DNA of 63,208 bases, filler included, from Rhabdomonas costata (GCA_019059605.1; 28 parts of 28 records of this genome joined end to end with filler, not necessarily neighbours in it); one strand, 5' to 3'. Positions 31,155 through 63,208 are shown, numbered from the whole stretch's first letter. Program-made: numbers and translations. Notes: generated from the sequence alone by a model not told the origin.

Positions 31155-31367
31155 TTACGGCGTTGAAGAGCCGGACCCGCCCGCACCCGCTCCAGAGTCC
31201 GTACCACCACCCCCACCGCTGCCGCCATTGCTGGCGTACATGATGCGCGAGCACTCCATAACGGCATCCTCGACGATCTTCATGTTGGCCTTGATCTTCT
31301 CCGCGTCATCCTTGCCAATGGCGTCCTTGAGGTCCGAGATCTTCTTCTTCAGGTCATCCTTCTTGTC
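31155..31367 (-). CDS. HSP70: Mitochondrial-type Hsp70 (DnaK-like), terminal exon
   Basis: DKKDDLKKKISDLKDAIGKDDAEKIKANMKIVEDAVMECSRIMY + Gly/Ser tail; no EEVD or KDEL; AVMEC.R..Y resembles kinetoplastid mtHsp70. Confidence 0.8.
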   Translation of the reverse strand, partial: DKKDDLKKKISDLKDAIGKDDAEKIKANMKIVEDAVMECSRIMYASNGGSGGGGGTDSGAGAGGSGSSTP

Positions 31368-31661
31368 CTGCAAGCCCGTATCAGATAAACGCCAGAGCCC
31401 AACCTCGGAGTGGGCCATGATAGTTATTGGGCATTCGTTTTGAGCACAAGAAAACGCGGTTTCAAAAACTACATTGACCACGCAGCGCTTAAGCTTGTGC
31501 ACCAATTTCAAATCGCTGAATGATAATAAAACAAGCACAAACTGGAGCCAGAAAAAAAACCNNNNNNNNNNNNNNNNNNNNNNNNNNNNNNNNNNNNNNN
31601 NNNNNTTAATTAATTAANNNNNNNNNNNNNNNNNNNNNNNNNNNNNNNNNNNNNNNNNNNN

Positions 31662-32063
31662 TGTTTGAGAAGCGACCGAGAGGATGTGACGTAGTGGCTG
31701 GTTGCGACCGAGAGTCGTCGGTAAAGAGGGCACAGGCTTGGGCAGATGCGAGTAGTGGTTGCGGCCAGGCTCTACACGGCCCGCGGCGATAGCAAGGCCA
31801 ACCCGGGGAAAGAAAGTCTCCTCACCTAGGTGGCTTGACAGCGCTCACAAAGCGAAAGCTTTGTCGGGAGGGTCCACGGAGTGGAGCGGATCGAGTGGGC
31901 TAAGCGGGGAAGTCGCAAGAGCCACGTAATTGGTTCGGGCCCGCCGTGCCGTCTGACAGTATGTCCGTCGTCAGCGTTCCTCTTACATTAGATCCAGTCA
32001 GTGTGCGTACTTTGCCGGATCCCTGTTCTGAATAGTTAAACTTGTAGTTAAAATATATCAACA
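31662..32063 (+). mobile_element. Candidate solo LTR or structured non-coding element
   Basis: Starts TGTT(T)GA and ends AT-rich ...aaaatataTCAACA; non-coding; internal hairpin acaaagc-GAAA-gctttgt. Confidence 0.3.
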
Positions 32064-32866
32064 TGTCCGGCTTTGAAATAATCTAAAGGGGCACGACAGG
32101 TCGAGGATCCAGAAGAGCTCTGCGGTTACCTGGGGGGCGACTCATCAGGAACCTTGGGACATGCAGAGCAACCGCTTAGGAAGCGAGGCACAATCCAAAT
32201 ACAAAACCGCGAATATGACCGAGGGAGTCATTGAAGTGGGATAATAAAACTGTTCTTCTGTGGCGATCGGCATGGCGGTCGAAAGATTCCAAGACTTTCT
32301 TGAAAAGCACGTAAACCCCGCATTCCTGACATCGGAAACAAGGGAGGAGGGAGGAGAAAACGCCTCAGGAGACAAGCCTTGTGTACATCCGCCGAATAAC
32401 CCACAGCTGCTGGACGCAAACCAGAGAATGCATCCTCACTTTCAAAACGAAACGCAACTCACACAAATAGAGAAGGAGATCGGAGTTGAGCGTGAGCTGT
32501 GGAGGGAGGTGGGCGGCGCCTCCTCACACTCCACGGAGAAGTAGCGGAGAAATGACCGTCCCTTCCTGCGTTCGTCATGGGGCATACACACTGAGGAGAG
32601 GGAAAGCGAGCAGTCAGAATGATGAGAGAAGGGCTGGGCATACACCACAGAAATTGATTTCGAGTCGGCATTGCAGAAAGGAAAGATACGACGTTTGCAT
32701 TACTCGAGAAACGACGCGCGGGGAAAAAAGGAAGCGTTGTGAAATTGCCTAGAGGCATATGGGAAAGCAGGTGCTTGGTGCTGGAACGTGGAAACTGTGC
32801 AGCGGTAGCAATAGCGAACCAAAAAGCAGCGGAAAACAGAGGTCTGGATTTGTTGCCCTTTCCATT

Positions 32867-33713
32867 TCATTTACTATACGACTGCACGCACACAAGGGGC
32901 CACTGAGCAGCAGCGCCGCCGGGATATGCGAGGCCAGCTCCGCGGCGCTCAGCAGCCGTGATCACGTTGGCCTGCACGATCGTCTGCCCCGTGGTGCTCG
33001 GTGAGGTTGGCGTCCCCAGAGCCCACCGAAAGCCCAGCGGGAAGCGGAGTCCACACAAACATCCGGTCCCCAACCCCAAGGCGGGCACATTTAGCTGGGC
33101 GTCCCCAAGGCTTCCCGTAGGGCTGCCCTATTCAAGCGCAGTCAACGCAAATGACGCCGCCGTGACGTACGCAGGATTCGTGAAGTTCTCATACGCTCAC
33201 CGACGTGCTCGTGTCCAGGGAAACTGACACGCTGAGGTCGAAGCGGTTGCAGGCACTCGCAAGGAAGGTCTCCGAAAGCGGCTGGCCCTCACTCTGCGGG
33301 AACACAGCCTGCAGGAAGCAGCTGCACAGGCTCCCCCTGAGTGGTGTTGAGGGCGTCGCCCCGGCTGTCAGGAGTATCCTCATCGCGGAGGATGGCAGCA
33401 CCGAGGGTAGAGTGCCAAGCGCTGTCGTGGGCTACTCGCTGCTCGTGATGCACACCCCGCCCGCGATGTAGGGGTAGCTCACCTCCACATAGAACCCGCT
33501 GCCGTTGCTGCGCAGGCACATGGTGGGCTGCGGTGGGATGGGCCGCATCTGCACGTCCACGCTGTAGTCCACCGTGAAGACGGAGGGGCAGGCGCAGTGC
33601 CAGGAGCCCGCGCTGCCCTTCCGTTGGCAGAGCCTTCTGCACCCGTCGCCATACTCAACGTTACCGTCGTCGCACTGCTCCCCGGTCTCCAGAAGGAAGT
33701 TCCCGCAGATGCT
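32867..33713 (-). pseudogene. Cys-rich extracellular protein with myxococcal cysteine-rich (DUF4215-like) repeat, disrupted
   Basis: ICGNFLLETGEQCDDGNVEYGDGCRRLC; in-frame TAG at 33432-33434 and 33128-33130, frameshift near 33190. Confidence 0.6.
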
Positions 33714-34229
33714 CTGCGTGGTATTTTCTAACCATGACTCCCCCCCAACTGCAAAAGGTAGAAAAAATGTCTGGCAGGGTCCTTGCTGTGAGCCGTATAT
33801 TGCCTATATCTCCCACCCCCCCCNNNNNNNNNNNNNNNNNNNNNNNNNNNNNNNNNNNNNNNNNNNNTTAATTAATTAANNNNNNNNNNNNNNNNNNNNN
33901 NNNNNNNNNNNNNNNNNNNNNNNCTATTGGTACTATGTGTGTTCCTGCTGTGTTTACGCCTTCTGTGTTTTGTATGGCCCTCCTCATTTGCGGTGAGAGT
34001 GTTTGAGGAGGGTTTCTTATCCGTGGTGGTGGCTATGTGGAAAATAAAAATGGAGGTCGCTGGCTGTGTTCTCTTGTGAAGGGTTAGAAAACCCTTATGC
34101 ACGACCTGTTGGCAAAGCGTCGATATTTTGAAAACGGAAAAGCACTAAGAAGGCGGGAAAGACCGATTGCAATTGTCTTTTAATTTAATAGGCTTCAAAT
34201 TGGGTGAGGGGGTTGGGGTGGGAAAACAG

Positions 34230-35258
34230 CTGCCCACTCACTCCTCCACGGCATGCAAAGTGGCGTTGCAGCTGAAGACTGCGGTGGCCAACATGCACCC
34301 CACTGGGTACGGGCCACTGCCTGGGTTGGAGCTGCACGCCTCGATCTGCACCGGACACGTCTTCTTTGGCAACCTGGGCAGCGCCACGATGCAAACCTTC
34401 ACCCTGGTCGGGCCGGTGGTGACCCTGCTGCACCACCTCACTACCCTGAACCCAGGCGCGTGTGCGTGGTGCCGAGGGACGCAGGGGTTGAAGTGTTGGT
34501 TTGTGTGTCCGTACATGTTTCCATGCGTTCTCGCTTTTGAATCTGAGCCGTTCTCGAGCCAAATTCCTACTTTACCCACAAGGAACATACACGAGTATAT
34601 GTGAGGGCAGGCCAAAGCTGAACCTTATCATGAACTGCCGCGAAAAAATCAGAATAAAGTAGAGAGAGAGACGGCAACCGTGCCGTCCAAATTGGGCAAA
34701 AAAAATTTCGACGAGACAGGAACGTAAGTTAATATTTTCTCCCACTCCTGTCTTCCTTGTGCTTCTTTTCTTCGCAGTGCTCGGGTCGAACATTCTGGTC
34801 GACGGCCAGACCTGGCAGGCCGCTCAGGACGAGTTCGTCTTCCGCGCCGTCGACCGAGTCCGAGTTCAGGTCAAGCGCCCCCTCTCCCCTACAAGGGCCC
34901 TCTCGCTTGCGGCCCGCTGTTCCCCGACTGACGCGGTTTTCAGCTTTTTTTATAAAGCTTTTTTTTTTCGTCTCGGTTGTCTTCTCTCGTCAGCCAAGAA
35001 TCGTACCTCGCGAAGGTTCCTCATCGCAAGCTGTGGCACCACGTCGGATTTTCTCAAACGGTTAGGAGCAAGAAGTGGAAAGCAGGAGCACTTATACATT
35101 GGACTTGCGAGGAGGAGGCTATGCGATGCTGTGGGGTTTGTGTGCAGTGTGCCGCGCCCCGCCCGCTGCAAACCCTCGTGATGGAGCTGATGCAAAAGAA
35201 AGAGAAGAAGTCCATGAAGGATGACGACGGGGACTGGCTGTTCAACCTCCCCACTCAG
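34230..35258 (+). CDS. Class III adenylate/guanylate cyclase catalytic domain; exons 34230-34455, 34778-34869, 35148-35258
   Basis: ACKVAL, HASICTGHVFFGNLGS..MQTFTLVGPVV, LGSNILVD, FRAVDRV, VMEL...GDWLFNL. Confidence 0.85.
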
Positions 35259-37252
35259 GTGTGATCCGCCCCCACGGACCTACCGCGAACTAGAGACAGT
35301 CCCTCGAAGTTGCCTGTCAAGGTGGCGGTGTTCCCGGTCTGTGGTTAGTTCCGGTGCCATGTTCGAGCTTCCTACCAGTTTATTTTCTGCAGCTCCAAGC
35401 GGTGTTTTCTTGTCGCCACTGTCCATTGCAGTTGTGTGGCTGTTGATGTTTCACATAGCTTTACCTCCAGCGACAAGTCCCCCTCCTTTTCTTACAGAGC
35501 GAAAGACTTCCTATCATTTTCTTACTCTCTCTTCTTTTCCTTAGGCCGCAACGGATCACTTTGCGGACGGGATGCAGCATTTCTTCTCTGGGAACTTCAC
35601 GAAGGTCCGCCCAAAAACCCGGACACCAAGACAGGGAGAATGGCGGGGGGGTGGGTAGGACGGACGCTGGAAGTGGCACACATCTGAATACGATACGCCT
35701 GTAGTGGAAGGACGGAATTTCGAATTTCACACGACCATAATGTTTTTCTTGCGTATGTGCACGTTTTTGTACATGTTACAAGGTGAAATTTTAATTCTGG
35801 AGTTGTTTGGAGCCGAAGGTCACCAGCAAAAGATCACGGGAGCGAGTTGCCGCGCTGTTCAGGGTGGTGCCTGCTCTTCTCAGCTGCTAGAGGAGTTGGT
35901 CCTGCCACGTGCCCACCGGCTAGGGAGCTTTTGCTGGTGCTACACTTGCATCACGTTCAAAGTAATTGATGCCCAGAAAATTTTTAAACGTTTTTTATCG
36001 CAATTAGAAACTCTGCTGCAGTGTTGTTTTGTTTTTTTCTCGCCTCGCGCACGCGCTTGAGTGAGACGAAAGGACAAACACCCNNNNNNNNNNNNNNNNN
36101 NNNNNNNNNNNNNNNNNNNNNNNNNNNTTAATTAATTAANNNNNNNNNNNNNNNNNNNNNNNNNNNNNNNNNNNNNNNNNNNNGTTTGTGGGGGGTAAAC
36201 GAAGCAAAGGTGAGGCTTCGGAGAAAGAAACTGCAGGAATCTGGTTGGATAGGCACAGCAGTGAAGAGGAAGAAGGGTGAGGTGGAGAAATGCACATGGA
36301 CGAATATCGCGTAAATGGGCCTGTACAGCTGACTTGCTGTAAATCCTGGCTCGAAAATCAAGCTTTTGCAGGGGGAAGTAGGCCGGTAATCTTCTCGATT
36401 TATTTTTGGCGGGCTTTTTCAAAACGAACTCATTTTCGACTCGTTCGAATCTTCCAGGGAGGGCTGATACCACCCGTTTGAGTATGGTAAAGGAAAGGCC
36501 GTGAAAAATGGGCATTCCTAAGGTAATCTTCAAACTCAATTTGCGCCTGGGCACGCTCTGAAGAAGGTCTGCGATTCCAGAGGCGTTCAATTTCGCCCGA
36601 GGGTACATAAGTGGAATTGGTTCCCAAGCTCCTCTTCCGATAAATATTCAGCTCACGTGAGAATCTGCAGGCCTTAAAAACCACCAGCCACCATTCCAAG
36701 TTTCCGGTTCCTCAGCAGGTGCTGGCACCTTTTCGCCAGCAAGCATGTCCAGAAAATCCCACAACCGTGCACGGAAAGGAGCAGGAAGCGAAAGAGCTCC
36801 CCAAAATGGGCGTGACTTTCACCACTCCCGCGAGCCCAGAGCTTTGCTCCGATCCGCGCAGCGCACAGCAGCAGAAACAACCTCGCATGAGCACAAGCAA
36901 AAAATAAATAAAAAATCAGGATCTCAGCACGAACAAGCGCACGGCATGTCCGCCAATGCTGGTATTCCACCAATCACCCATCAGAACTATGAGGTATCTA
37001 GCCGCGAAAACCGGAATGCACGCAGAGGGAGAGTTGCGAGAAAGAGAAAGGCTAAGGCTACGCAGCATATGGGGGCTGACCGCGGCCAGGCAAGGGCCCT
37101 GGCAACACACGACAACCCGACGGCTTCCGCGCCTCCCTCCTTCCACAGCTCCCCAAAGGCAGGGGAGGGTGAAGACAAGTGGGGAACGACACAGGTGATG
37201 ATGGAGCTGTAGTGGGTGGAGGAAAGGGGTCAGCCTCCTCCCCTCACCCGTC

Positions 37253-38344
37253 TCAGAGCATCACCAGCCCTACTTCGCAGGGCTGGATATCCTTGAAGCG
37301 CCAGTTGAAGAGGTAGTACTGCAGGTGGCCGTCTCCCTGCCCGAACTTCAGCTCCTTCAGAAACCTGAGTCAAGTGGAGAGCACTCCTCTTATATCTCGG
37401 CTCGTCGCTTCAACTGCTAAAGCTAATGCGTCAAACTGAACAGATGACGCCTACCGTCTCCCCATGGCTCCCTAGGGGACCTTTGAATTGAGGGCAGAGT
37501 CAGTCATCTTCGTATGTGCATTTCGCAGCTGCAAACGAAATGATGTGGATGTGATCCAAGTCCAGCCAAAACTGAAAGGCCAACTAACATAGCAGAGGTC
37601 CCCAGAACATCCGAAAACCGCACACACATTCGCACATTCGCACAAAAAGCCAAGTGATTTATGGTGATGAGAAATCATCGCTGAAGTGAAAAAACAATAA
37701 TTTGCAATTGAAGGGTTTTTAGCGTTCTGGCGTTCAAAACTTTTCCATCTCACCATTTTAGGGAGGCAAGGGGAGGGAGGTGATTGCTGGTACTTCATAT
37801 TCTCCATGATGTCCAACGCATTAAACACGTCAAATTCGCGCTGCTTGGCGAGGACCAGCGCGTCCGTCATCAGAGTGGGCAGGTCCACCGAGGTGGCGAT
37901 GTTATAAAAGGAGTACGCTGCCTGCGCAAGTCGTGTTTGCGAAAGTGAACCTGAAAACAACTTCAGGACAACCGCTCATCCGGTCATCCGAAACGAGAGC
38001 ATCAAACGTACACTGGCGCTGAGCTGCTAGGTATCGAAAAGTCTTAAGTCAACACCAAAGTCTTGCTTTCGCTCTCAAAACACAAACGTATAAAATTCTC
38101 TTTGTACGAAGAGGGCAACAGCGCGCCAACAGGAGCCACATATCTCAGGCGTAAAGACCGATCGGAAGTCGGGAGGGGGGGAGGCAGGCTGGTAGGTGCC
38201 TTGAGGTCTTTGTACTTGTCATTGCCGATCACGGTGCTTGGGAGGTTGTAGAAGCTGATCAGGTCTGTCACCTTCCCACCCTTCTCCACTACAAAGGAGT
38301 AAACCACCCCCTGCCGGGGAACCAGCCAGTGCGCAACCACCCCC
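37253..38344 (-). CDS. NMT: Glycylpeptide N-myristoyltransferase, C-terminal part; exons 38344-38200, 37921-37794, 37364-37253
   Basis: [72 protein letters not shown]. Confidence 0.97.
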
Positions 38345-39013
38345 NNNNNNNNNNNNNNNNNNNNNNNNNNNNNNNNNNNNNNNNNNNNTTAATTAATTAA
38401 NNNNNNNNNNNNNNNNNNNNNNNNNNNNNNNNNNNNNNNNNNNNTTGTGGGGGTAGAAGGATGAGAGAGTGTGAGGGAGAAGGCCAGAATAGGCCAAAAA
38501 GGCCTTTCTGTGAACGAGAAAAACAAGTGCCCTGGGGCAAAAGCGACGGGGCTCCAACACGTCGCTAAGAAAAACGAAAAAATGGGTCTGCGAATGAGCT
38601 CAATTTGTAGTGGGAGCGATGCTGCGGTCGCCGAGTGGCTTGATAAGACTACAAAGGAGCCGAGAGTGGGAGTGAGTGCTACTTTTGAGGTTGCTCGCTG
38701 GGGTCCACGACGGGGGGGTTTTGCAAGGGTGCGGCTTAGAAAAATTATCTCTTCCATCGGCTCTTCTAGAAGGTTGCAGATTTTCCAAGGACTTCAATGC
38801 TTACGATTCGCCACTGGATCATTCGTGCGCGCGCACACACGCATGCGCATAGGGCAGGCAAACGCGGCGGGTGGTAAGAACCGGTACTTAGCGATAATCA
38901 ACGGAAATGATGGTGCAACTACTAATTAAGCACCCACAACAAACAGCAACTCACACTCACCACTGACAATTTATTCTCTGCCAACCCCCACTATCACACA
39001 CACACACACACAC

Positions 39014-40605
39014 CGGAGCAGCCTGATAAAATAAAAGTCCCGTAGTCAGTGTTGCATCTCACGGTGGGGGTCCCACCATAGCCTGGAGCACAGGACAGCC
39101 CATTACAGCTTCCAGCGTACACGTACAGTCCAGCGTACAAGGAGCCACAGCCGCTTCCGGAATAACTGTAACCCAGCGGCAGCCGCAGGCTGGGCAAGGC
39201 GCACAACATTGCTGTGGGAATATGCCGCGGAGGAAAACTAGAAAGGATCTCCTGACCGGATGATCACCCAAAACAGCAGACATATCACCGCTTTCAAAAG
39301 AGGCTATCCGTACGGAAAAAGAATGCCCTCGGTAGCCCACGCAGCAGTGGCTGTCAAAAGCAACCGGGTGTGAACTGACTTCCTTCTGAAGGCCGTGAAA
39401 ACGGTGGAAAGAAGTTGAACGCTTCGGCCGACCATTACATTTGAAAAGTTGAGCTACACGTGTGACAAAACTCGACCTAGAAAGGGGGTCACCCATTGAA
39501 TGGACCCAAAGACATTTCCAGTTCCCCAAAGGTTCTTCAGTTTCTGGCATTCTCCAGGTTTTCCAAATTGTAACTGGCGATTGCCAAGGGATAACGCACA
39601 TATACAGCCTATTACATGTAAAGTTAAATTACAAGACGGGTTTTTCAGCCTGACTACGTCCTCGTTTGTTGGCATTGAAGCGATCATGATTTTTTTGTAA
39701 TTTTTTAGATCATGTCTGGACCATACTAATTCGGCCCCCATTCCAACATCTGCTGGTGCCACCGCTGCACACAGTGCTAGTGGACCGTAGCTTCGGGATC
39801 AAATGGAGGAACATTCCCGTTTGCAAAAGCAGGTCAACCACCCCAGCACAGCAGTCCGTCGATAAACACGGAGAACTGGTACAGGCTCTGTTCCGCATCC
39901 AAACTCGTGCCATGCTGGTACATGTCGACGAGGCGAAGTTGCAGCACAGCTGAGCTGAGAAAAGAAAAGGACAACACCTTCGGGGGTTTGTGTAGTCGTT
40001 GTTGGGTGTCAAGTGTGATACTCACGTAACGCAGTGGGTGACGTGGAGCTGGTATCCTTGGATATGACACCTGTGAGATGAATGTGTAACCAGAGCCTAC
40101 AGACTGGCTTGGCGCCCTCGCTCGCTCATAGCCATCGTAATGCTGCCTGCAAAAGAAACTCTGCAAGTAGCTCGGACCTCAGGACAACGGATTGTCGGTC
40201 ACAAAAGATAAAATCGCAAATCTGCAACACCAGCCCCAACCTTAACGCGACCACCCAACTTCGTTCGCCGAACTGAAAAGGAAACAAAGAAAGCGATAAA
40301 AACCGTTGAAGGTGTTGCTGGAAAAGTTGCTGCTGGGAAGCAGCGGAAACACGGCTTGCAGTGCAGAGGAGCTGAAGGAGACGGAGTTTCCCTGCAAGCT
40401 GCCACTGCTGATGGTCCCCGTAGAAGACAAACTGCTACAGATGGTATTGCTGTAAAACTCCAAGTCGGATACCGAGCTGAGAAAGTTGAGCGCAACGCCC
40501 GAGGGAAAGGAGTTGCTGTACACGGAAAACGATAGGAAGGTGCCACTGGACCGGGAGAAGGTGAGTGTGGGAGTAGAGCTTCCCGTGAAGCTCTACCCCC
40601 ACCCC
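39014..40605 (-). CDS. Cys/Ser-rich modular secreted-type protein; exons at about 40605-40305, about 39955-39841 and 39211-39014
   Basis: Ser-rich exon; C..SPCLSTDCC module; phase-1 exon CALPS...LSCAPGYGGTPTVRC...FILSGCS. Confidence 0.55.
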
Positions 40606-40803
40606 NNNNNNNNNNNNNNNNNNNNNNNNNNNNNNNNNNNNNNNNNNNNTTAATTAATTAANNNNNNNNNNNNNNNNNNNNNNNNNNNNNNNNNNNNNNN
40701 NNNNNGTTGTTGTTTCCATTAAGAGCAGCTGACAAGAGATATGAGAAAACCCAATGTCAAATGGAATGCGATCATAAATCTCTCGTGTGCCTGTGTATCG
40801 CAG

Positions 40804-41967
40804 AGGTCTCTGTGCTGCCGGTCATCACACATTACGACCAGGTCAAGACCGAGGCCAAGCTGAAGGCAGAGGCTGATCGCTGCGCGGCCGCCTTTAACAC
40901 TGTCCCGGTACTCCTGCGCGCACGCCAAGTGAATTTGCAGATGTATGTTTTCCAAGCCAGTTTGGCTTCGCTGTCGGCAGGCTGCCAGATGTCAATGTGT
41001 TTTTACTCACTAGGGAAAGTAAAGTGGTTGGTTTGAGCACGGGATGATCATAAGACGGGATGATGCAACCCCAGCTGAGTGAGGTATGAATGCGGATTCC
41101 GCGTGCCGATGTCGATGAAGCCCATTGCGCATTGAGTAAGGGCGCCCTATTCTGGGATTTGGGTAACCCCGTGTTTTGAACCGAAGCATAACACTGTCCC
41201 CCAGCAATCTGCGCGGAACTTTCTCTCTCTCTCCAACAGATCGTTTTTTTTCCTTTCGCAGTCACACTCTCGGACAGCTTTAGAGGGTTGTACACCTTGT
41301 TTAGGTTGGAGATGGATTTGAGGCGGTTTTCACGATTCGGTTCGAAATCTCACACCGTGGTCAAAAGGCTCTTATTCCCCAGCGTAAGTTATCTTCAGGA
41401 CAAGAGGTTAGGATAACGACACCACTGAACAATGGTCCGTGTCGTTGATACATGATATTTCCTTTGGGATGATGTGGACGAGTTGGCGCTGGGGGGGGGG
41501 GTTCAAGGAAAGAAGCAAAATAATGTCTGCACAATGAAATTTGCAAACGCTACCCCACAGGTTTGCCTGGCCAACCTCAGTGCCCTGCGGCTGACTCCCT
41601 TCAACGCCACCTCTGAGGAGCTCGCCAGGCAGCAGGTAATTTGAGAACCGCGGAGGTCAGGGAGGCATGATTCTTTGTGCCCCACAGCTCTCCTTTCTCG
41701 TTGGATGGACGTACCGCATTTGTGCAATTGCCCTAAAGGTTTTTCGGTATTCAGGCGCTCCGTTGCTGGATGTCCTTGCATGGTCTCGTATTTGGACTCC
41801 ATTCTGTGGTTGCCTTACAGCGGCTGGTGGAGTTCACAAAGGAGACGGTGGTCTCGCTGGTGTCCCAGATCATGCTGTGTGGGCAGCAGCATCACATGTA
41901 CAAAAAGTATGACATCACTCGCCCCCTGCACCTTAACTCCTCCTCGGCGGACTGCAGCATAATGTGA
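40804..41967 (+). CDS. C-terminal part of a CAAX-ending protein, possibly P-loop GTPase-like; exons 40804-40907, 41561-41635, 41821-41967
   Basis: In-phase GT-AG exons; LPVITHYD (G4-like); ends CSIM*. Confidence 0.6.
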
Positions 41968-43199
41968 GCTCGTCACGTTCCGGACTGGAAGCGAGAAGGA
42001 GGGAAGGGGGGTTCAGCAGACACTGAGCCCCCTCCCGCTTCAGGGGAGGAGGGGACCGTAGAGCAGAGCGAATGCGACTCTGCTTTCTGCTTCTGTCCTT
42101 CTTCCCCAAGGGGCCTTCCTGTATGCAATGCGGGTTTTGAAAGGAAGAGAAAAGCTGCGTGTGCAGTGGTTGTCATGCGATGTCATGTGATCTGTACGTG
42201 TTGCCGTTTGTTGCCCCGCGCGCATTGATGCGGATTGTGGGGTGGCCGGGAACGGCTGTGGGAACAGCAGTGGGACACCCCCTGTGGGCTCGATCTCCCG
42301 CCGTTCCCTTCCTTTTGTGTTTTGGTTTACTGCCTCAGCTCCCACCCACCCCGCTGGGGGGCTCCCCCTCCCCCCAGCTGAGTGTGTGTGGTCCTGTCCT
42401 CTCCCACACTTTCTCTGTTGGGATAACCCCCCCAGGGGGGGCTTCCCACCTAAGGCTATTGTTTCTTAATCCTCAGAGCGGAAAATGGCTCTCCAGTCCA
42501 GGCTGATGCGTGCGTGTACGCGCGCTAGTATTGGGAATCACATACAAAAAACGAGGGAAAGGTCTTTGCCTTTTTGGGAGGGGCTCTGAAAGAGGAACGG
42601 CGGGTTTTCATTCGACGTCCACTGCGGGGTTTGTGTGAAGAGGGTAAGGTCATCAGCGCCATTCCCAGGCCTACCGGTCTGCCCCTCAATCCACTTACTC
42701 ACCGACACAGGCACATCCACCTACCACCTTCCCACATGTGAGCACTTTGCGCGGTGTCAATAGTTAATGTATTTTTTGAGTGACTGTGTGGAGAAATATG
42801 AAGGCTTCTCGGCCCTTATGCTCATTGGGACAAACCCCGCCTCCCGCCCACCCCCCAACCAAACAANNNNNNNNNNNNNNNNNNNNNNNNNNNNNNNNNN
42901 NNNNNNNNNNTTAATTAATTAANNNNNNNNNNNNNNNNNNNNNNNNNNNNNNNNNNNNNNNNNNNNGGGTGGTGTGGGGTTTGCTTCAACTCTGTTTGTG
43001 CGAACATACCATCCGAATCAAGGCATCTTCTTCACGGTTAAATATTTTTTTTTGCCAATTTGATTTGCAACCACCGACACTCCCTTTACAGACAGTCAGG
43101 GGGCTGTTGTCTCGAAGAATTTTTTTCTTCTGTGAAACAGCCCCTTGTCATCGCAACGTTCTGCACAGTACACTTGGTGCCATCAAAATCGTATCAGTG

Positions 43200-44720
43200 C
43201 AAACGCGGTGAAAAGCCACCGCCCGGATTGCCAGCTCACGAGGCTGCAGGAGGGCGCTTGCGGCGCACAGTCTTAATTCTCCAGCTGTCCATGTCTGCGT
43301 AAGAAAAGCGAATGAAGAGAGCGAGCAAGTCAGTGGTAAATAGAGGTTGGTTTTGATAGAAAACGGCAATAACGTAGGCACCAAAGCATAAAGACGACTA
43401 ATCGCAGATGAATGAGCAAAACACAGCACAAAATACCCAGCTCCGAGTCAGACGCCTCCTCGGAGTCCGAGCCAGAAGCTGGCGCACCAGAAGCGGCACC
43501 GGGTAAGGCTGCAGTGGCTTGGGCAAATTTGCCTGTGTCTGAGCCAGTGTCGGCCCCGGCAGCTAAGGATAATGCCGGGCTTCTCGAGGAAGAGTTCTGA
43601 AGCCGATGGCGTTGGGTACTCTCCAGAGTCAGCCGCACCTTTTCCAACCACTGGTGGGACTGCCTGGAAAGGAAAAACATCACCACCAAAACACCATGTC
43701 CTCCCGAAAAGGTGATCACAGGAGGAAGAAGGCAGTAGGGCATACGCCATCTGCATGCACTCGTCCATTTCGCGGTGCATGTTCCATTGCTCGGCTTGCT
43801 GCTGGTCCTTTTCAATGACCGCGTCCACGGCCTCGGCAATCTCTTGGTGGAGCAGCCTCATCTCATCTCTTTTCCACAGGAACAAAAATCCACATTAAGA
43901 GCAAAACAGGCGATACTTAAATATACCAGGAATTGCTACTTGGCTTCCCATCTGTGACCCCCAGCAAGGACATAGATGTGCAGAGGATTTGGGTGAGAAG
44001 CTTCTTAATAATTTTGTTGTGTCAGCAGACACCCTCTGTGTGAAGGCAGACCTAGATTTGCGGTAAGTTTTGTGCAGTAGATTTTGTGCTTTGCTTGTGG
44101 AATGGGACACAAAGGTCAATCCAAAAGAAATTCACACACGTAGATGCCCATGCACCTCATGCGGTTCTGCATCTCCTGGGCCTGATCGCGAGCGTGAGCG
44201 TCCTTCTTCTGGTCGTCGAAGAAGCCTTCCGGAATGGCAGAGGCACTTGTCCCTGTAAAACAAAGCATTTCGGAACGAGTCAAATTTGCAGAACTTCAAG
44301 AAACTCGAAGAAAAATTACAATCTTAACATGGGGTATGGAAAGGTTGAGACATAATACCTGATGTGGGCTTTTTCTTCGCAGGCTTGGCCTGGGCTTTCT
44401 GGGCCCCAGCACAGGTGTTGGCCGCTTTGCTCGCCAAAGCTGCGGACTTAGATCCACCGTCCTCCTGCGGCATCATTGCCGGGCGAGCACCTCCTTCACT
44501 GACTATCTCGGAGCCTTTTGCAGCCACGGAAGAGGAAGAAATTGCAGCAGTGCTTCCACCAGAGGGGAGCCGGGGGGCAGGAGCGAGAAACTCCGTGGGG
44601 CTCTTTTGCTCCTCCTCTGGCGAAGAGTCGAAGAACCCAGCGCTGAGCAGCTGCTGGCGGGTGCTTTCGAGGTGCTGCTGGGCTGCTGAGGCAGCGGCTG
44701 AGGCACTGCGCCGCACACCA
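43200..44720 (-). CDS. Multi-exon hypothetical protein (low-complexity/coiled-coil)
   Basis: Several AG/GT-bounded GC-rich blocks (about 44720-44357, 44255-44157, 43870-43746, 43662-43437). Confidence 0.45.
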
Positions 44721-46085: not shown

Positions 46086-47204
46086 GGGGCCATACCTCGG
46101 AGTCCGCGCTTCGGGCCGCGGACTGCAACGCCATAAGCCTGTGCATGAGCCTGCGCAAAACCTTCCGCGCGTTGCGCATGATTGTCGCGCTGAACTGCAT
46201 GGACAGTGCCAGGCATGCTGCTGGGATGCAAGATTGTCAGCCTTTGCTGTCGTCCATTAGCCTCCCTTTCCGACGAGATTTTGTCCAGGTTCATTTGATC
46301 TTCAGTGCTTGAAAGGAACTTCTGTTGTGGCAATGGAGGCATACGCAAAGGTCTACATGGAAAATTATACAAAAATAGGTTTTTGCCGACTGGGGAGGTG
46401 ACCACTTCGATGCTTCCCCTGCAGCGCGGGATTTCGCGCTCGCAGGACAGTGGGGTACAGGTCGGGTCACCCTCGGACAGCTGCTACGTCACCCCGGCGT
46501 ATGCCATGGGCCTGGTGTACTCCGAGACCACCGCGGCCAAGCTGCTTTGCGTGCTGCACCACCAGCCTGCTGTGCTTCCGGTGGTCTTGGGCCTTCTAGG
46601 GGCCCCAGCGGTGCCTACAATTCGCCGCCGTTGTGCAGCGGTGTCCGGAGGATCTTCGTTTGTGCAGCTTTTGCCTGTGCCACGGAACCCCTCTGATCCA
46701 ACTCTTCCTCTGTACCCCACATACCACGAGCTTTTTGTGCACTTCCTGACGTCGACGCCCTCCGGGCTTCCGCTTGGCTTGTGGAGGTCTTCGACATTTT
46801 ATACCTCTGCTCCCAAAATGGAGAACAATACCGCGCCTGACGGGAAAGGTTTTTTTCCCACAGTAGCGCACGTTTTTGACGGAGGTTGGTGGTCAGGCTT
46901 GTGGTTCACTTTTCTGAAGGGCCTTGCGAAAAAGGACGAGGCCAAGTTGCGTTGGTCTGCCTCCAAGCGTCTCTGTGACGAATCTATGATACCCCTGCCC
47001 TCCCCACCTGTGCAATGGACTTCCGCAGTGCGCTTCGCTGTTCCCGTCTCTGCTTCGTCGCTGGGGAGTGGAGCATCGCTTCTTTCGGATGGCTCGGGAC
47101 CACATGTTGTCCTGGGCTTCCCTCTTTCCACAGCCAAGGTGCTTGCCCAGGACTGGGTCTACGTGTTCACCCCCGCCCCTTTCTCCAGCACCAAAATGCA
47201 GTGA
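46086..47204 (+). CDS. Hypothetical protein, exons at about 46086-46212 and 46424-47200
   Basis: Open frame of about 260 aa after ctgcag acceptor. Confidence 0.45.
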
Positions 47205-47529
47205 GTTATGGTGGCTGTCACACTTCCGTGTTTGCCGATGCCGCTGTACTGTTGTGCTTTTCGTGCCAATGTTGCTGCCAACAATCATACAATCCTTTGC
47301 CTGGCTGCCGTGTACCATCCCCTTGAAAGAGCATAAGTGTACCCCCACCGTGGGCAGCGCCACCAACAACCCCAACCACACCCAACACNNNNNNNNNNNN
47401 NNNNNNNNNNNNNNNNNNNNNNNNNNNNNNNNTTAATTAATTAANNNNNNNNNNNNNNNNNNNNNNNNNNNNNNNNNNNNNNNNNNNNCATGTTCACCAT
47501 GTTCACGGTGTGTGTGTCATCTCGTGCAG

Positions 47530-49337
<1,808 letters not shown>

Positions 49338-50023
49338 GTCCGTCCCCCCCACTCCCTCACTCTTCGCGCATATTTCGCCGGTAAGCTTGGCGCTCCACCA
49401 TTTGATGTTATCGCCAAAGTTAAAGCTTCGTTAGAGTTATATTGACCATTCACGGCCATCCACGTCTGCATCTGAGTTCTTGCCGTAATTTCAGCCTCCT
49501 TTTTTCGTCCCCTCTCTATTGAATTGATTGAATCTTGCGTAACTGCTCTTTCTGGTGCTTTTCTTGGGTGCTGGGAAAGCCGTCTGAAAAAAGGAAACAG
49601 AAAACCTGTATCTCAATGCTAATTCTGCTTCAGACTAAAAACCCCCCCNNNNNNNNNNNNNNNNNNNNNNNNNNNNNNNNNNNNNNNNNNNNTTAATTAA
49701 TTAANNNNNNNNNNNNNNNNNNNNNNNNNNNNNNNNNNNNNNNNNNNNAAACGTGCTGTGCTGGCAAAACTGAAGTACACTTTCCCAACGCAGGTCTGCC
49801 ACCCGTCCTTTTTTCCGTGCTAACCCAGAGTTGTTTAACCAGGAGTGAAAAGTTCGGGTTATCTTTTCAGCAAGACAAACACGCTTACCAAATGGCCATT
49901 TAGTTTGATCACCATTTGGACAACGCAGGTAAATAGCTGAGTGCAACGATATTTTTTTTTGCATTTGGTTTTGAATAATCGCGTCAAAAACGCAATGCTA
50001 GATTTTTCCCTCACTCCTTTTAG

Positions 50024-56876: not shown

Positions 56877-58549
56877 ATCTACGACGCCGCGTTCGCCATC
56901 AAGAACCGAATTTATGGCAACCGCATCGTGCTTTTCGCCCCACTGTACCTATCGAACCACTGCGTGAACCAGTGCACCTACTGCGCCTTCCGCCACTCCA
57001 ACAAGGTGTCCTTGGAGATCACCCAATCCCCTGTTTTCTCAATTCCCGGTGCACCGGGGGAGAGTGGTTGTGGATTGGTTTGTAGTTCATCGTTGATATC
57101 ACGAGCTTGTTGGACCGCGCGTGAATGGCAAAACAAACATGTGTCCTTTTTCTTCGTTTCTTCGTTGCCACTCCCTTCCTCATATTATTCCCATTGTGTG
57201 CTGGTTCGCTTGCCGCACAGCGAAGATTCCCCTTCCCAAAATAAAGCGCCAGTAAAGGTTCAAAAAAGTGTTTCATTTTTGGCTTCCTTGATTCGCCAAA
57301 CAAAAGCGTCCATGTATGGTGTGATATCATGGTGTGGCCTGCAAGGAACACTTCTCGTTCATGCCTTGGTTTCCACCGAAGCCGTTTCCTGTTGTAGCAA
57401 ACTCCCCCAGCGCCAAATGCACCTCCCAAAAATTAACATTCAATTGTGCACAGAAAAATAACGCTCCCTTAAGAAGATTCGCACTACGGTAGTGCTGGAG
57501 AGATTGTAGGCGCAAGGGAGAGGTTTTGTCCTTCGGAGAACTTTTTTCTGTCCACGGTTGTTTGAATCCTGTTCTGCTTGCCTGAAAAGGTGACATGGTT
57601 CCGAAGCGCACATGCATCAGGCACATGCATCTGCGTGCCTTCCTCAGGAAATTGCTCGCAACGTGCTGACCCATGACCAGGTACCTTTCCGTCTTCAGTG
57701 TTCTCAAAAGAAAAGTAGAACAGAGGCTGACAGTCTCTGAACAGTTTAAACAAGCAGGTCTCTCACCCTTCTTTACCACGGTACCGCACTTCGTAGCACA
57801 CAGGAAACCCACCACATCCTCACAGCAACAGCAAGAAAATCAGCAGTGGGGCTTGTAAACTCTGAGTCTTCAGAGACAAAGTCTTCCACAATCAAATGCT
57901 TGTGGAGAGGATGGGCATGTTCCGAGGAGAGGTCATTTGGTCTCGCAGGGGGTAAGGTGGCGATGACCGCGTCCCAAAATGAAGTTCTCTCGCAAGGGGT
58001 CATGCGCGCATAAAGACGACACGCATGCTGGGAGTACGGGGCCCCATTTGGACTCATGTCATTTTCGGCCGATAAACTGCCTGAATTCCTTCCTTCCTCT
58101 GTTGTAAAAGTGCGGTGCTGTGGTCGTCAGAGGGCTTTGCTTGTTTCTTGTTCGCCTCCACCACAACCGAACAACCGACCTCCGTCCCCCCGCTCCGGTA
58201 CTTTCCCAGATCCGCGAGCAGATCTCCGTGCTGGTCTCCCAAGGCCACCGCCGTGTGCTCATGCTGACCGGGGAGAGCCCAAGGTGGAAGCCGGCGTTCG
58301 CGTGTGACCAGTCTATTCCCTCTTTTGTGTACTGTGCCACGAAGTGCCAGAAAGTGCACCTCGCGGCCGAGGTGGGGTGACAGGCTGCAGCATTCGGCTG
58401 TCACACCACATTCGGCTGCTCGGGCGCACCGCTTTTTGCACTTCTTGTGCGGTGGGCTATGTTAGCTGCCGGCTCTTTGCTCAGGTACACCTTTGACGAG
58501 CTTCTCGAGGCCATTCAGGTGGCAGCGGGTGTGGTGGTGCCCCCTGCAG
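56877..58549 (+). CDS. hydG: [FeFe]-hydrogenase maturase HydG (radical SAM), internal fragment; exons 56877-57005, 57648-57680, 58210-58283, 58485-58549
   Basis: Spliced: IYDAAFAIKNRIYGNRIVLFAPLYLSNHCVNQCTYCAFRHSNK|EIARNVLTHDQ|IREQISVLVSQGHRRVLMLTGESPR|YTFDELLEAIQVAAGVVVPPA; CxxxCxxC motif; all introns GT-AG and in phase. Confidence 0.88.
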
Positions 58550-59039
58550 GTCCATGTCTGTGACCCCCCCCCCACAAATTCCTGCGCACTCTTCATCACT
58601 CTAGTTCTTCCCCTTTTCCCTCGAGGACCAAATAAATGCCGTGCCTTTCCATCAGCACAGTGTTCACGCGACCTGCAGACAAACCAACNNNNNNNNNNNN
58701 NNNNNNNNNNNNNNNNNNNNNNNNNNNNNNNNTTAATTAATTAANNNNNNNNNNNNNNNNNNNNNNNNNNNNNNNNNNNNNNNNNNNNGTGGTGGGTGTG
58801 GTTGGGGTTGGGGGTAGTGTACGAGCGGGTGGGTACAGCCAGGCACAGAGTGGGACCAGGTAGGGGGTCCTTTTTCCTCCTTCTCGCCGCGCGCTAAAAT
58901 CTCCGCGGCGGCTTTTTCTTCAGGCTTCAGGTAGTGCTGCTGTGGAGGGCGTGACGCGGGCGTGTGTCTTGATGGTTGAGGGCGGTTCCATTGCGTGCCT
59001 ATCTGAAGCTGATAGTGCGTAAGCAAAAGCCACTCACGG

Positions 59040-60630
59040 AACGTTTGCTTGCTGGTCCTTCCGGTTTGTCTCTGTGCAGCCGCCTGCCGCAGAACGTATG
59101 GCGCCGCAGGTGCCTCTGCCTGCCCCTGCGGTTTATTATGATCACTACGATGCGGCGCCCGTGCAGTCTTTCCGGGTGAGTGTGTGTGTTTGTGTGTGTG
59201 TGTGTGAACGCGCCAAAACACCAGCAGGTGTTCAGAACAAGCAGCACAAGGACACGCCACAGCACACCGCGCAATATATGTGTACAGGAGGAAGGGCTGA
59301 TTTGTGACGAATCGTGTGAAAACGCTGTGATGGGATGCCCATTTGTGATGGGACGCCATAAGAAGTCAATGAAGTTTTTGCTCGCAGATGGATGTGATCC
59401 ATTCTACAATTTTCAGCTGAAACCGCACTTTCTTTTGCTGTGCAAGTGTAAGATGCTTCCACGCAGTTGCCTGTTAAGGCTGATATTACGGCGGGGGATT
59501 TTGTTGTCTGAACGTAAAGAGGCAGTCATTTCTATTAATGTGTGTGTGTGTGTTGTCGAGGAGTTGTGGCCGTGGTGCCGCAGCCCGTGCTTCGCTTGCG
59601 TTTCTCTGCGGAGGATGGCTCGGCGGGCTGTGCCTCCCCTTTGGTATACTGCTGGGTGGAGCTCCACCTGCAGCAGGAAATTCAGGTGAGTTGGCTCGCA
59701 TTGCGAACAATTGAATGCCCTCCGGCGGATTGTATTTTGGTGTCCGCGTTGCAACATTCCTGATAAAAGCAGATTCTACGTTAGCACCGGACTGCTTTTC
59801 TTGGTGTAGTAGATGCTGCTTGTTCTCATGTGTCAATTGACTTTCAGCTGTGGCTCTGTTCAAATACTGTCTACAAAATCAACCAACGGAATAAATCGTG
59901 ACATGTGTTTTTTCGTGTGCGTTTGGGGTGGGGGGTGCCCCAGCTCACCCACGTGATTTGCGTCACGGATGCCGAGGAGGTCACCCTGCCTGCTCTGGCG
60001 GAAGCGCAAGTCAGCATAAGGTGGTGCAGCCCTGAAGGCAGCTCTGAGGAGGGCGGAACCCCGCTGAGGACCTTTCACATTGACCTGACAGGGGTTCTTG
60101 AGAATTCAGGTCTGACCTTGACGCCATTCCCAGTATTTTCATTGACATTTTATTTCGCTGCAAACAGGGGTCTTGATAGCTTGCATTTTGTATTAGTTTG
60201 GTTCATTGTTGTTGTTACGGGGTTGCTCGTTCCATTAAAGTTAAACAGGGAATTTGGGACGGACGAGCAAACCCAGGTCTTCTTTGTAGGTATTGCCTCC
60301 TCTCCCTCTCCCTCTCTCGGCGCCCCTCTCTATTGCTTCTTTTCCAGGGGTTCCAAACTCCCTTCTTCTTTTGCGACTCCTGCCACCAACAACTAACCGA
60401 GTGAAGCCCACGCTGGGAGGCAGCTCGCGGCCAGCCTCTCGTGGCGAGCCCTCCGTCTGCATCGCCTCCCTTCATGCCTTCGCAGCGGCACCTCCACATA
60501 CGCCCTCGGTGGAGGAGAGCCCTCACCGCACTTCCGTTGGCCGTCGGCGATTGTCGGAATGCTTGGCTTCCTTGTCAGAGCTTGCTGCCGGGCGGGCTCA
60601 AACCTCTGGGGAGCTCCGCGGCACCGTGTG
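59040..60630 (+). CDS. Multi-exon hypothetical protein
   Basis: Exon-like blocks ending CGG|gtgagt (59175) and CAG|gtgagt (59685), followed by cccag|CTCACCCAC (59944). Confidence 0.35.
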
Positions 60631-61205
60631 ACGTCGGAGCCGTTGCTGCATTTCGTGTTAAGAGTCTTAATCGCTAATGGACCGCCGAGTATTGTATGTG
60701 TGCGTACGTGCTGTCTGCGAAGGAAGGGGTCTCACTTGTATCGAGCTGACTTCTTTCCGCATCTTTTGCCTCTGTGTTCTGTCCATGTGTACCTGCTGAT
60801 TGCGCTTGTTCATAAACTGTTCGAGGGAGATGTGCGTGGCGTATCATGTAGCCTTATTTGATGAACGGATACCATCGGATTCCGTTCACTCTGGTCAGCC
60901 TGTGGCGCTTCCAGTATGTCTTGAGGCTACATGATACCCCACACCACCNNNNNNNNNNNNNNNNNNNNNNNNNNNNNNNNNNNNNNNNNNNNTTAATTAA
61001 TTAANNNNNNNNNNNNNNNNNNNNNNNNNNNNNNNNNNNNNNNNNNNNGGGTCAAGGTGGACGTAACGTTCCCTCTGCAGCTGTGCAAATATAGACGGGT
61101 GGGCGAAGAAACAGGCAGAGAGAACGTTACGTCCACCTTGACCCTCCGATCAAACACGGAAACCAACTCGGCGGTTTCACAACTGCAAACGTGTCGGCAG
61201 CACAC

Positions 61206-61407
61206 TTTTGTGATGTCCCCGCGGCGGACTCGCAGAAGATGCCCCGAGGAAAGACGATGCTCGACACTGAAATCAGAAACGCCTTCGCTGGCGCAAACGG
61301 CGAACGAAGAACGCGCTCCTGATAGCACAGCCACGCGAAAAGCTGCTAGAGGAAAGCTGCTACCGAGACTTGTATAAGTAATCACCAACTGAACAGTGTC
61401 GGCAGTC
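61206..61407 (-). CDS. Exon reaching the start of a macro domain (LLRVRRGDITK)
   Basis: Macro-domain GDIT motif at exon end, tttcag acceptor and gtgtgc donor; VKVDV follows near 61143. Confidence 0.5.
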
Positions 61408-62381
61408 TGAAAAAGAAATTGCATTTCGCAAAACGCACAAACCAACTATTTTGATAACTGCGGGCCTACGTTGATGAAGTGATACTCCGTATTGTTCAGC
61501 GCAAGCGGGGCCCACCCCCCATTCCTTCTCTTCAACCACAAAACCGACACAAAAGCCAAAATTGCTCACACAGCGCCTGTGGCAAGCGTTGTCGACAGCC
61601 CCAGCAAGCCAAAGACGAGAGATCGTGCAGCAAGCTTTTTCATGGCACCTCACTCCGTCCTCGTGAGCACACGGAAATTTCAGCGAGCAAAAAACAATGT
61701 TCCGTACGGACTGCGAAATGAGTAAATGTGTAATGCTTCCTCGAGAAATGGCAAACTGGTGAACAAACTCCTGCCAAAACCAGTACTCTTTCACATTTTC
61801 ACTGCCAATAAAATTCAAGCCGTTGTCTGCGTATGTGGGAAAATTGCACGCTGAGCCTTGCTTGCCGCTCCGGGTCCAAGAATTTTGACTCAAATAAAAG
61901 CGCTTTGTGTACACTTGTGGCTGTGCTAGTTGCAGTTCTGTTTCTCGTTCGGCTGTTCAGATAGGCCAGCCTTCAGCCGGCCTCCGAACCCTCAGCAGTT
62001 GTCGGGGACCACGTAGGAACGGGAGTGAGGACCAAACGAAACTTCACCCTATTCGCTGAGCGATATATCACGTTGGCACCAGACTAGACACAGAAACAGA
62101 CCTATGTTCTTTTGAAAGGGAGAGGAATCGCGCCAAGAACCCATGAGAGCCCCTGGCTCGGCTGAGGGCAACGTTATCACAAACACAACTTCTTTCGGTG
62201 CCTCGGCACAGAACAGTGGAACAGACACACAGGAGTGCAGACCAGGAATCAGGGATCAGGGAATCAGGCACCACGGGGGGGGGGGGGTCGATAATGGATA
62301 TAAACTATATTTTTCCGGCCAAACCCCTTCAGCGATGGCAGACACATACACATACAAAGCTGTCACGCACGCTTCTGTCAG

Positions 62382-63208
62382 GGCCATCTCTCCTTCTGTG
62401 CTACTCGCCGTGCATTGACTGGGGCATTGATATGCAGTACCAGATGGAGAGCCAGCGCATTGCCGTGGACAGCGGGTACTGGCGCCTCTACCGCTATGAC
62501 CCCCGGCTGGCGGCTCAGGGCAAGGTGCTGGGGTTGGGGGTACCTCTCAGTTGCCCTGTTGAAGTGCTTGTTCGGCTTCTGTCGTGGTTTGCTGTCTTCT
62601 TTGTAATGCATGCGATGTCCTGGGCGCCCACTGGGAAAAAATATTCGTTCACCCTCTCTCATTTCTCTCAGGTTGCTCTTCAGTTGGACTCTCCCAAGAT
62701 CAAGACGGATGTCACCAAGTTCCTGGAGACCCAGAACCGCTTCAAGCAGCTGATGCGCAAGGACAAGGTCAAGGCAAGCAGCTACTTCCAGTATGCACGG
62801 ATGCACTACTGAACAGGGCAAGTTCCAAGAAATTTCACAGCGGGGATCACACCGGAGGAGGCAGGAATGCACCCAAACAAAAAACACACACAAAACCCGC
62901 AGAAGGCGAAGGTATGGTTCCGGGTTTTGGTTCTGCTTCGGACACAAAGAAGAGTCCTTTCACGTTCCGGATGTTTGTGCCCAGGTTTCGTAGGTTTGGG
63001 TGTGCGGTAGTGGAGTGCCCGTGTGATGGGGTGGAATTGGAACGGGGTTGCCGGCTTCAGGTCCCTCAAGGTCCATCTGGCGGACGCTCACGAGCGAGCC
63101 AAGCGCGACTCCATGGACAACCTGGAACTGCTGGACCACCTCAAGGCCTTGGTGGGCGAGACCTCTACCGGGGACAAGGTGCAGGTGCTGTACGCCTCAC
63201 ACACCACA
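62382..63208 (+). CDS. PNO: Pyruvate:NADP+ oxidoreductase (PFO domain fused to flavodoxin/CPR domain), junction region; exons 62382-62524, 62672-62790, 63061-63208
   Basis: GPSLLLCYSPCIDWGI...AVDSGYWRLYRYDP..GK|VALQLDS..FLETQNRFKQL..FQ|SLK..SMDNLELLDHLK..GE..DKVQVLYAS: PFO C-terminus runs without a stop into a flavodoxin beta-1/P-loop start. Confidence 0.88.

Follow-up and report, generated by a model that had tools for sequence, protein, structure and literature searches.

A transcribed HydG gene in the osmotrophic euglenid Rhabdomonas costata and the possibility of hydrogen production in a respiring mitochondrion

Introduction

Euglenozoa provide the textbook case of an anaerobic mitochondrial metabolism without hydrogen, which in Euglena involves PNO, rhodoquinone, and wax esters. 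Here we describe part of a gene for HydG, a protein of [FeFe]-hydrogenase maturation, in the euglenid Rhabdomonas costata. The gene lies in a stretch of 63,208 nucleotides, spacers included (the window, below), which joins contigs sampled from the draft nuclear genome of this free-living osmotroph (GCA_019059605.1) and not linked to one another. The window holds 28 separate contigs of 2152 to 2166 bp each, arranged in order of length, with GC contents of 0.49 to 0.58 and spacers of the form N44-TTAATTAATTAA-N44 between them. A first-pass annotation of positions 31155 to 63208 had noted HydG, PNO, and a mitochondrial-type Hsp70 tail and had proposed a hydrogen-producing anaerobic mitochondrion in a euglenozoan. 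Its observations are confirmed by the analysis reported here, including its remark that the genes are not physically linked, each being on its own contig; its interpretation is partly supported.

Several described systems can be set beside this locus. Naegleria gruberi, an aerobic or facultative protist, is said to have an [FeFe]-hydrogenase together with its maturases. For Naegleria and Acanthamoeba castellanii, HydA, HydE, HydF, and PFO are documented, whereas for R. costata only HydG is documented and PNO stands in place of PFO. Acanthamoeba resembles R. costata in that respiring, cristate mitochondria occur together with hydrogenosome-type genes (PMC3785491). Within Discoba, the anaerobic jakobid Stygiella incarcerata has a hydrogen-producing fermentation system (PMC7050145); its organelle is an H2-producing, mitochondrion-related one, whereas R. 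costata has retained its cristae and a complete respiratory chain. Euglena gracilis shares PNO, rhodoquinone, and wax-ester fermentation with R. costata, and the PNO encoded on one of the contigs studied here is of that type. As described, PDH is present in E. gracilis, HydA is absent, and no role for a hydrogenase is detectable there, whereas R. costata lacks PDH and AOX and has HydG. The HydG proteins of green algae (Chlamydomonas, Tetradesmus, Scenedesmus, and Chara) belong to the same family as the euglenid protein, are of similar length, carry the same motifs, and likewise have an N-terminal extension of organelle type. The euglenid host, however, is a plastid-less osmotroph, and only HydG has been seen in R. 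costata, not its partners HydA and HydEF.

The cell biology of R. costata comes from Soukal et al. 2021 (PMC8219788). R. costata has no plastid and is a primary osmotroph. Its mitochondria have well-developed cristae, complexes I to V (complex I with 29 subunits), cytochrome c, ubiquinone, and rhodoquinone, and a rhodoquinone methyltransferase, a fumarate reductase, and the enzymes of wax-ester synthesis are present. Neither PDH nor AOX is reported, PNO (five transcripts) is the only pyruvate oxidizer, and the cells survive about 1 month of anoxia (PMC8219788). PNO and mtHsp70 of R. costata are therefore already published; the new element is a genuine euglenid HydG. The accessible literature yielded no report of HydG in any euglenozoan, and nothing was found on a hydrogenase in Rhabdomonas costata or in symbiontids.

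A spliced and transcribed HydG gene on contig 26

An open reading frame (ORF) at positions 56877-57458 on the plus strand of contig 26 matched solved structures of HydG (4wcx, E 2e-13; 4rtb, E 5.7e-12) and, more weakly, ThiH (E 2e-7). With the exon as query, 482 of 484 candidates from the protein database matched, the best of them eukprot:RCo052057 (P0001 below; 518 amino acids [aa]) at 100% identity; what we say about HydG database matches refers to the best 120 of these 482. Identifiers with RCo numbers are transcript identifiers of R. costata (PMC8219788), and this identity bears out the earlier assignment of the DNA to a euglenozoan. Exact-match mapping placed four exons (Table 1), which correspond to residues 112 to 212 of P0001 and are identical to it at 101/101 positions; the gene extends past both ends of the contig. 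One junction can be put at 58207 or at 58210, 3 bases apart; when it is moved by the codon that the two exons share, a GT...AG intron results. All five placeable intron ends in HydG are GT or AG, and the acceptors are pyrimidine-rich; the ends that could be placed in PNO and Hsp70 (below) are also GT or AG. In six R. costata genes checked by hand, all completely resolved introns were of the GT/AG kind (PMC8219788). Contig 26 thus carries part of a real, transcribed HydG gene with spliceosomal introns.

P0001 scored 499.5 bits against TIGR03955, the NCBI equivalog model of HydG, which is above the cut-off of 312.15, and 273.3 bits against the ThiH model TIGR02351, which is below the cut-off of 380; the same pattern, passing the one and failing the other, was seen in all five members of the clade described below. 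At full length, P0001 gave 457 bits to the PDB HydG 4wcx and 172 to ThiH. The radical S-adenosylmethionine motif CX3CX2C is present as CVNQCTYC at residue 140, and the C-terminal auxiliary-cluster motif CX2CX22C is at residue 433, in a part of the gene that lies outside the contig. This second motif defines HydG and is not known from ThiH. All six cysteines of the two motifs are invariant in an alignment of 12 sequences that includes bacterial HydG. On these measures RCo052057 falls under the definition of HydG, as the first-pass annotation had it, and not under that of ThiH.

A euglenid clade of HydG proteins

We placed the protein in a tree of 70 HydG sequences, computed by a quick IQ-TREE run under LG+C20 with the Shimodaira-Hasegawa-like approximate likelihood ratio test (SH-aLRT) as the only measure of support. 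The sequences were chosen from the best 120 matches, with near-identical Clostridium entries and a few long fusions dropped. Eukaryotic HydGs form one group (SH-aLRT 98), and within it P0001 and four other sequences (P0002-P0005) make up a tight five-member clade (SH-aLRT 100) on a stem of 0.65, with pairwise identities of 75-87%. This clade is sister (SH-aLRT 99) to a group of green algae, Chara, Vitrella, and unnamed sequences and is not nested in it. The green-algal proteins are the nearest named relatives, with 81-84% identity over the 43-aa exon among the matches listed. The HydG of Stygiella (P0054, by its source's name) has an extension of the same type ahead of a conserved WSVE start, but it sits apart from the euglenid clade, with red algae. 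Forcing the two together cost 60.6 log-likelihood units (p-AU, from the approximately unbiased test, 0.00037, for a grouping picked after the tree had been seen), so the comparison points to no specific kinship between them. No HydG from E. gracilis was found among the best 120 of the 482 matches. With euglenids beside green algae and apart from a jakobid, the history of HydG in eukaryotes does not look simply vertical. Elsewhere in the tree, the HydG of the chromerid Vitrella joins Chara and an unnamed EukProt sequence on the green-algal side; the HydGs of diatoms and pelagophytes make up another clade, together with red algae and Stygiella.

Two members of the five-member clade, P0003 and P0005, are encoded by intron-free environmental metatranscript contigs (L085 and L086, respectively). 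The first bases of L086 are TTTTTTCG and those of L085 TTTTCG, matching the spliced leader of R. costata and euglenids, as quoted in PMC8219788, at its 3′ end; starts resembling the spliced leader were seen in 0 of the 102 other loci compared. These terminal bases of the spliced leader, 6 at the start of L085 and 8 at that of L086, place HydG-expressing euglenids in nature. In this clade HydG is thus a gene family that euglenids express and trans-splice, and more than a one-off case.

All five members also begin with an N-terminal extension of 22-27 aa that contains 4-6 lysines or arginines and no aspartate or glutamate; in P0001 it has 23 residues and is likewise basic and free of acids. The stretch of equal length that follows contains 5-7 acidic residues. 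Across the clade the extensions vary, while the mature part of HydG is conserved. This pattern suggests that the euglenid HydG is probably imported into the mitochondrion.

PNO on contig 28

The second gene of interest is on contig 28, where an ORF at 62147-62809 (plus strand) matches the C-termini of PFO proteins (6cin, E 1.2e-12). In a search of 1.84 billion representatives with this PFO end as query, 710 proteins were found at E <=0.001, and domains were checked in eight representatives picked by rank and length from the best 150 of the 710. In five of the eight, the PFO end is followed by Flavodoxin_1, FAD_binding_1, and NAD_binding_1; of the remaining three, one has a GltD-like tail, one only TPP_enzyme_C, and one no family. 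The last 141 bases of the contig aligned with aa 712-747 of P0166 (68% identity, E 2.2e-7) and with aa 196-241 of P0159 (51%, E 1.6e-5), proteins in which Flavodoxin_1 begins at residues 741 and 235, respectively. Contig 28 therefore holds, on a single strand and in the right order, the PFO C-terminus, a linker, and about 11 flavodoxin residues, the rest of the gene lying beyond the contig. By this domain order it encodes a PNO fusion (PFO-flavodoxin/FAD/NAD) and not a plain PFO, in agreement with the first-pass annotation.

The protein with the GltD-like tail, P0167, has its PFO C-terminus fused to Fer4_20 and Pyr_redox_2 in place of the flavodoxin/FAD/NAD module, which looks like a different wiring of PFO to a pyridine-nucleotide reductase. 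Non-coding CA/TG dinucleotide repeats are present at about 62300-62375, in the intron before a PNO exon, and at about 59180-59230; these runs translate as 'THTHTH' or 'VCVCVC'.

A possible role in hydrogen production

We think it somewhat probable that the euglenid HydG works in the maturation of a mitochondrial [FeFe]-hydrogenase, which would give a cristate, respiring mitochondrion an extra electron sink under anoxia. In the mechanism that we envision, the 23-residue extension would be a mitochondrial presequence, and HydG would enter the matrix. There it would cleave tyrosine to form the Fe(CO)2CN unit, which HydE and HydF would convert into the H-cluster (2Fe subcluster) of HydA; the maturation roles of the three proteins are those summarized in PMC8003979. 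HydG enzymes are characterized by a tyrosine lyase activity that yields CO and CN- and is needed for the activation of HydA. The hydrogenase would be added to the rhodoquinone/fumarate-reductase and wax-ester routes as a further outlet for electrons. Because PNO passes electrons to NAD(P)+, an intermediate carrier between PNO and HydA would be required, and we imagine that electrons from pyruvate would reach HydA via ferredoxin or an NAD(P)H module of the NuoE/NuoF type, not directly from PNO. NuoE and NuoF are thought to partner [FeFe]-hydrogenase in anaerobic protists (PMC5953543).

That a euglenid which has lost PDH and relies on PNO expresses a HydG both conserved and equipped with an import-type extension suggests that the hydrogenase toolkit reaches Euglenozoa. 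If this is true, R. costata would be a further case of an O2-respiring mitochondrion with hydrogenosome-type parts, and it raises the mechanistic question of how a PNO that produces NAD(P)H might feed a hydrogenase. A wider proposal can be put forward only tentatively, as something possible and somewhat doubtful: that the whole set of HydA, HydE, HydF, and HydG is present and targeted to the mitochondrion in the heterotrophic euglenids of the Rhabdomonas lineage, which would evolve H2 in a cristate, respiring mitochondrion with PNO as its only pyruvate oxidizer. With this set, Euglenozoa would have a first hydrogenase system, one that was lost in Euglena and in kinetoplastids and is tied to NAD(P)H and not to a direct feed from PFO and ferredoxin. 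For R. costata itself, we regard hydrogen production as plausible and unproven.

Several observations weigh against these proposals. The main text of PMC8219788 contains neither 'HydG' nor 'ThiH' nor any word starting with 'hydrogen', although its supplements may list RCo052057; in a paper that annotated the anaerobic mitochondrial metabolism of R. costata, such silence would be surprising had HydA been found. E. gracilis is described as having just a NAR-like protein and no HYDA, and its H2 is barely detectable (PMC10407231). No HydA, HydE, or HydF was seen in the window, which amounts to some 60 kb (<0.1%) of the 107-Mb assembly. General Pfam scans found no hydrogenase family among the window's ORFs, and no search for HydA, HydE, or HydF was aimed at the R. 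costata proteome. These scans covered all 283 stop-free ORFs of at least 65 aa on contigs 14-28 and 149 of the 159 ORFs of at least 80 aa on contigs 1-13 (the 10 shortest were left out), and at E 0.5 they gave the best 25 of 30 families per ORF set. The negative result for the window ORFs says nothing about the genome, because the window is so small a part of it. Among long (700-2000 aa) relatives of Clostridium HydF there were 35 fusion proteins, 0 of them from EukProt or MMETSP, in a search that was not aimed at R. costata. A HydG sequence used alone as query gave no bacterial loci; a HydG alignment as query gave 597 of 600 candidate stretches, and the Clostridium HydF came from one of the genomes so found. 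The spliced-leader matches cover just 6 bases in L085 and 8 in L086, and TTTTCG occurs again in L085 at base 26. Mitochondrial targeting of HydG is read from residue counts. Finally, PNO reduces NAD(P)+, and the link from PNO to H2 is unproven both thermodynamically and mechanistically.

Two alternatives would remove the gene from the question altogether, and we reject both. That it encodes ThiH, a 2-iminoacetate synthase of thiamine synthesis, might be read from the source names of relatives among the matches listed ('thiH', 'Biotin and thiamin synthesis-associated', '2-iminoacetate synthase'), but P0001 is below the ThiH cut-off and above that of HydG, and its match to ThiH stops at residue 431, leaving the CX2CX22C domain at the C-terminus outside the ThiH model. 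Since thiazole synthesis in R. costata is assigned to an archaeal-type ADP-thiazole synthase (PMC8219788), ThiH would not be needed there. We regard this as the least probable reading of all. Hardly more credible is an origin of the HydG contig and transcript in another eukaryote, whether prey, alga, or culture contaminant. The nearest named relatives of the clade are indeed green algae, Chara, and Vitrella; the clade is nevertheless sister to the algal group and not within it, on a branch of 0.65, and members of it bear the euglenid spliced-leader end. The culture was monoeukaryotic, and the DNA was whole-genome amplified from cells sorted by flow cytometry (FACS) and laser-microdissected (PMC8219788), so that the first-pass guess of a 'single-cell genome' came close. 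The HydG contig is not an outlier by k-mer composition (leave-one-out z, -0.75 with 3-mers and -0.26 with 4-mers; contigs 7, 9, 11, and 15 are the ones that stand out), the GC content at third codon positions (GC3) of its exons, 0.79, is like that of PNO (0.81-0.86), Hsp70 (0.78), DHX16 (0.87), and NMT (0.80), and its GT-AG introns resemble those on other contigs. Because the culture was monoeukaryotic, the contig is no k-mer outlier, and GC3 is alike, the conclusion that HydG and PNO belong to one organism is supported; the concern that the HydG contig might bin with a different eukaryote was not borne out by k-mer profile and GC3.

For a gene that is HydG and is the euglenid's own, the chief rival is an orphan: the hydrogenase was lost or never there, HydG is a relic or has another tyrosine-lyase or iron-carbonyl role, and no H2 is made. 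The detail in which the main text of PMC8219788 treats anaerobic pathways with no 'hydrogen' word, the lack of HydA and near lack of H2 in E. gracilis (PMC10407231), and the finding that RCo is the only euglenid from EukProt or MMETSP among the best 120 HydG matches all speak for it. Against it, the clade shows 75-87% identity and has kept all cluster ligands while the extension drifted, the pattern that an imported, functioning enzyme shows, and HydG is expressed in cultured cells as well as in two metatranscript contigs from the environment. To our knowledge, the only role of HydG is H-cluster synthesis for [FeFe]-hydrogenase. We therefore consider an orphan HydG unlikely, while taking it seriously. 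A hydrogenase system could instead be present in the cytosol, with the mitochondrion not the site of H2 formation and PNO unconnected to it. A cytosolic hydrogenase has reportedly been found in Naegleria gruberi, aerobic protists with a hydrogenase outside classical hydrogenosomes are said to be known, and the evidence for HydG targeting is compositional. The basic, acid-free extension of 22-27 aa ahead of a conserved start in 5/5 clade members and in the Stygiella HydG argues for import, however, as does the general prediction of mitochondrial location for the maturases of core chlorophytes (PMC12924338), and a cytosolic system seems to us improbable. An obligate anaerobe with a hydrogenosome, the acristate, symbiontid-like cell of the analogy drawn in the first-pass annotation, was rejected on the published cristae, complexes I-V, cytochrome c, quinones including rhodoquinone, and survival of about 1 month of anoxia (PMC8219788); R. 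costata is a facultative anaerobe and not symbiontid-like with a hydrogenosome. The reading that we retain is HydG as a maturase for a mitochondrial hydrogenase.

Hsp70 and other genes of the window

The Hsp70 tail AVMECSRIMY noted in the first-pass annotation is present on contig 14. Used as a query, the tail found one match in 2928 candidates, P0156, which carries no RCo identifier. P0156 scored 822 bits against human mitochondrial Stress-70, 756 against DnaK, and 577 against cytosolic Hsp70, and it serves as a proxy here, the window holding just the last ~70 residues of Hsp70. By this proxy, the contig 14 tail would be of mitochondrial type. Two mtHsp70 transcripts, RCo049920 and RCo045932, are described for R. 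costata (PMC8219788).

The axonemal dynein reported alongside these genes is a real dynein heavy chain, and it lies on contig 12, outside the part of the window to which it had been assigned. For the helicase, the best PDB match was human DHX16 (E 2.4e-31), with Prp43 close behind (E 8.6e-30). The best PDB matches of a 46-aa exon of the N-myristoyltransferase were named NMT1 and NMT2, and the exon is uninformative for placing the taxon. With this exon, the PDB entries that we take to be kinetoplastid NMTs were far worse, at E ~1e-4. The cyclase-like ORF had no Pfam match at E 0.5 among the best 25 of 30 families. Rfam and tRNA scans of the window returned no family and no tRNA, hence no rRNA or spliced-leader RNA gene, markers that the first-pass annotation had named as worth seeking.

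Table 1. Positions of the gene features discussed, numbered from the first base of the window
Feature	Contig	Coordinates	Strand	Evidence and remarks
HydG exon, aa 112-154	26	56877..57005	+	43/43 aa exact; AG acceptor, GT donor; carries radical-SAM CX3CX2C
HydG micro-exon, aa 155-165	26	57648..57680	+	11/11 aa exact; flanks ...cag/ and /gtacct
HydG exon, aa 166-190	26	58210..58284	+	Exact match; start 58207 or 58210 (3-base ambiguity)
HydG exon, aa 190-212	26	58483..58551	+	23/23 aa exact; GT donor after
PNO exon, end of PFO TPP-binding domain	28	62378..62524	+	6cin E 1.2e-12; tblastn to P0159, P0166; cag/ acceptor, /gtgctg donor
PNO exon, C-terminal PFO segment	28	62672..62787	+	Aligned to P0159, P0166, P0207, P0282, P0185; AG and GT ends
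PNO exon, linker and first flavodoxin (FMN) residues	28	63065..63208	+	P0166 and P0159 alignments; extends past contig end
Hsp70 last exon and stop codon, tail AVMECSRIMY (at 31265)	14	31155..31367	-	76% identical to P0156 tail; ttgcag/ acceptor
Dynein heavy chain exons (AAA lid, AAA_7 P-loop module)	12	24881..26624	-	AAA_7 E 3.2e-30; Dynein_AAA_lid E 1.1e-14, 2.3e-9
ORF with class III nucleotidyl-cyclase-like exon		34149..34601	+	Weak: PDB adenylate cyclase 2w01 E 1.3e-5, 6fht E 6.4e-5
N-myristoyltransferase C-terminal domain exons		37475..38343 (ORFs 37475-37975, 38047-38343)	-	NMT_C in 2/141 ORFs, best E 1.8e-15; PDB NMT E 1.1e-11
DEAH-box splicing helicase exons (DHX16/Prp2-like)		47491..49442	+	Helicase_C E 2.8e-7; HA2_N 0.012; OB_NTP_bind 0.09

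The assembly from which the window is taken comprises 107 Mb with a GC content of 51.63%, in 36,105 contigs above 1 kb, the largest of 8,093 bp (PMC8219788), and the window fits this description; the transcriptome of R. costata numbers 93,852 transcripts and 39,456 proteins. Within the window, contigs 7 (13576-15736) and 15 (31662-33823) have the highest GC, 0.579 and 0.572, and are both k-mer outliers (z of 2.3-2.8 and 1.6-1.7, respectively); contig 15 has a cysteine-rich DUF4215 repeat at 33435-33803 on the minus strand (E 3.8e-7). Contig 9 (18104-20263, minus strand) is open over its whole 2.16 kb in one reading frame of 720 aa, uninterrupted by stops or introns; the frame has no Pfam family at E 0.01, and the contig is a k-mer outlier with z of about 1.9-2.05. 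A Vps36 (ESCRT-II) domain was found in one of the 149 ORFs of positions 1-29299 (E 1.5e-12), and a C2-C2_1 domain of the RPGRIP1 type, a family of the ciliary transition zone, in one of the 141 ORFs of positions 29400-46256 (E 2.2e-4). Both are ordinary eukaryotic genes and fit a flagellate.

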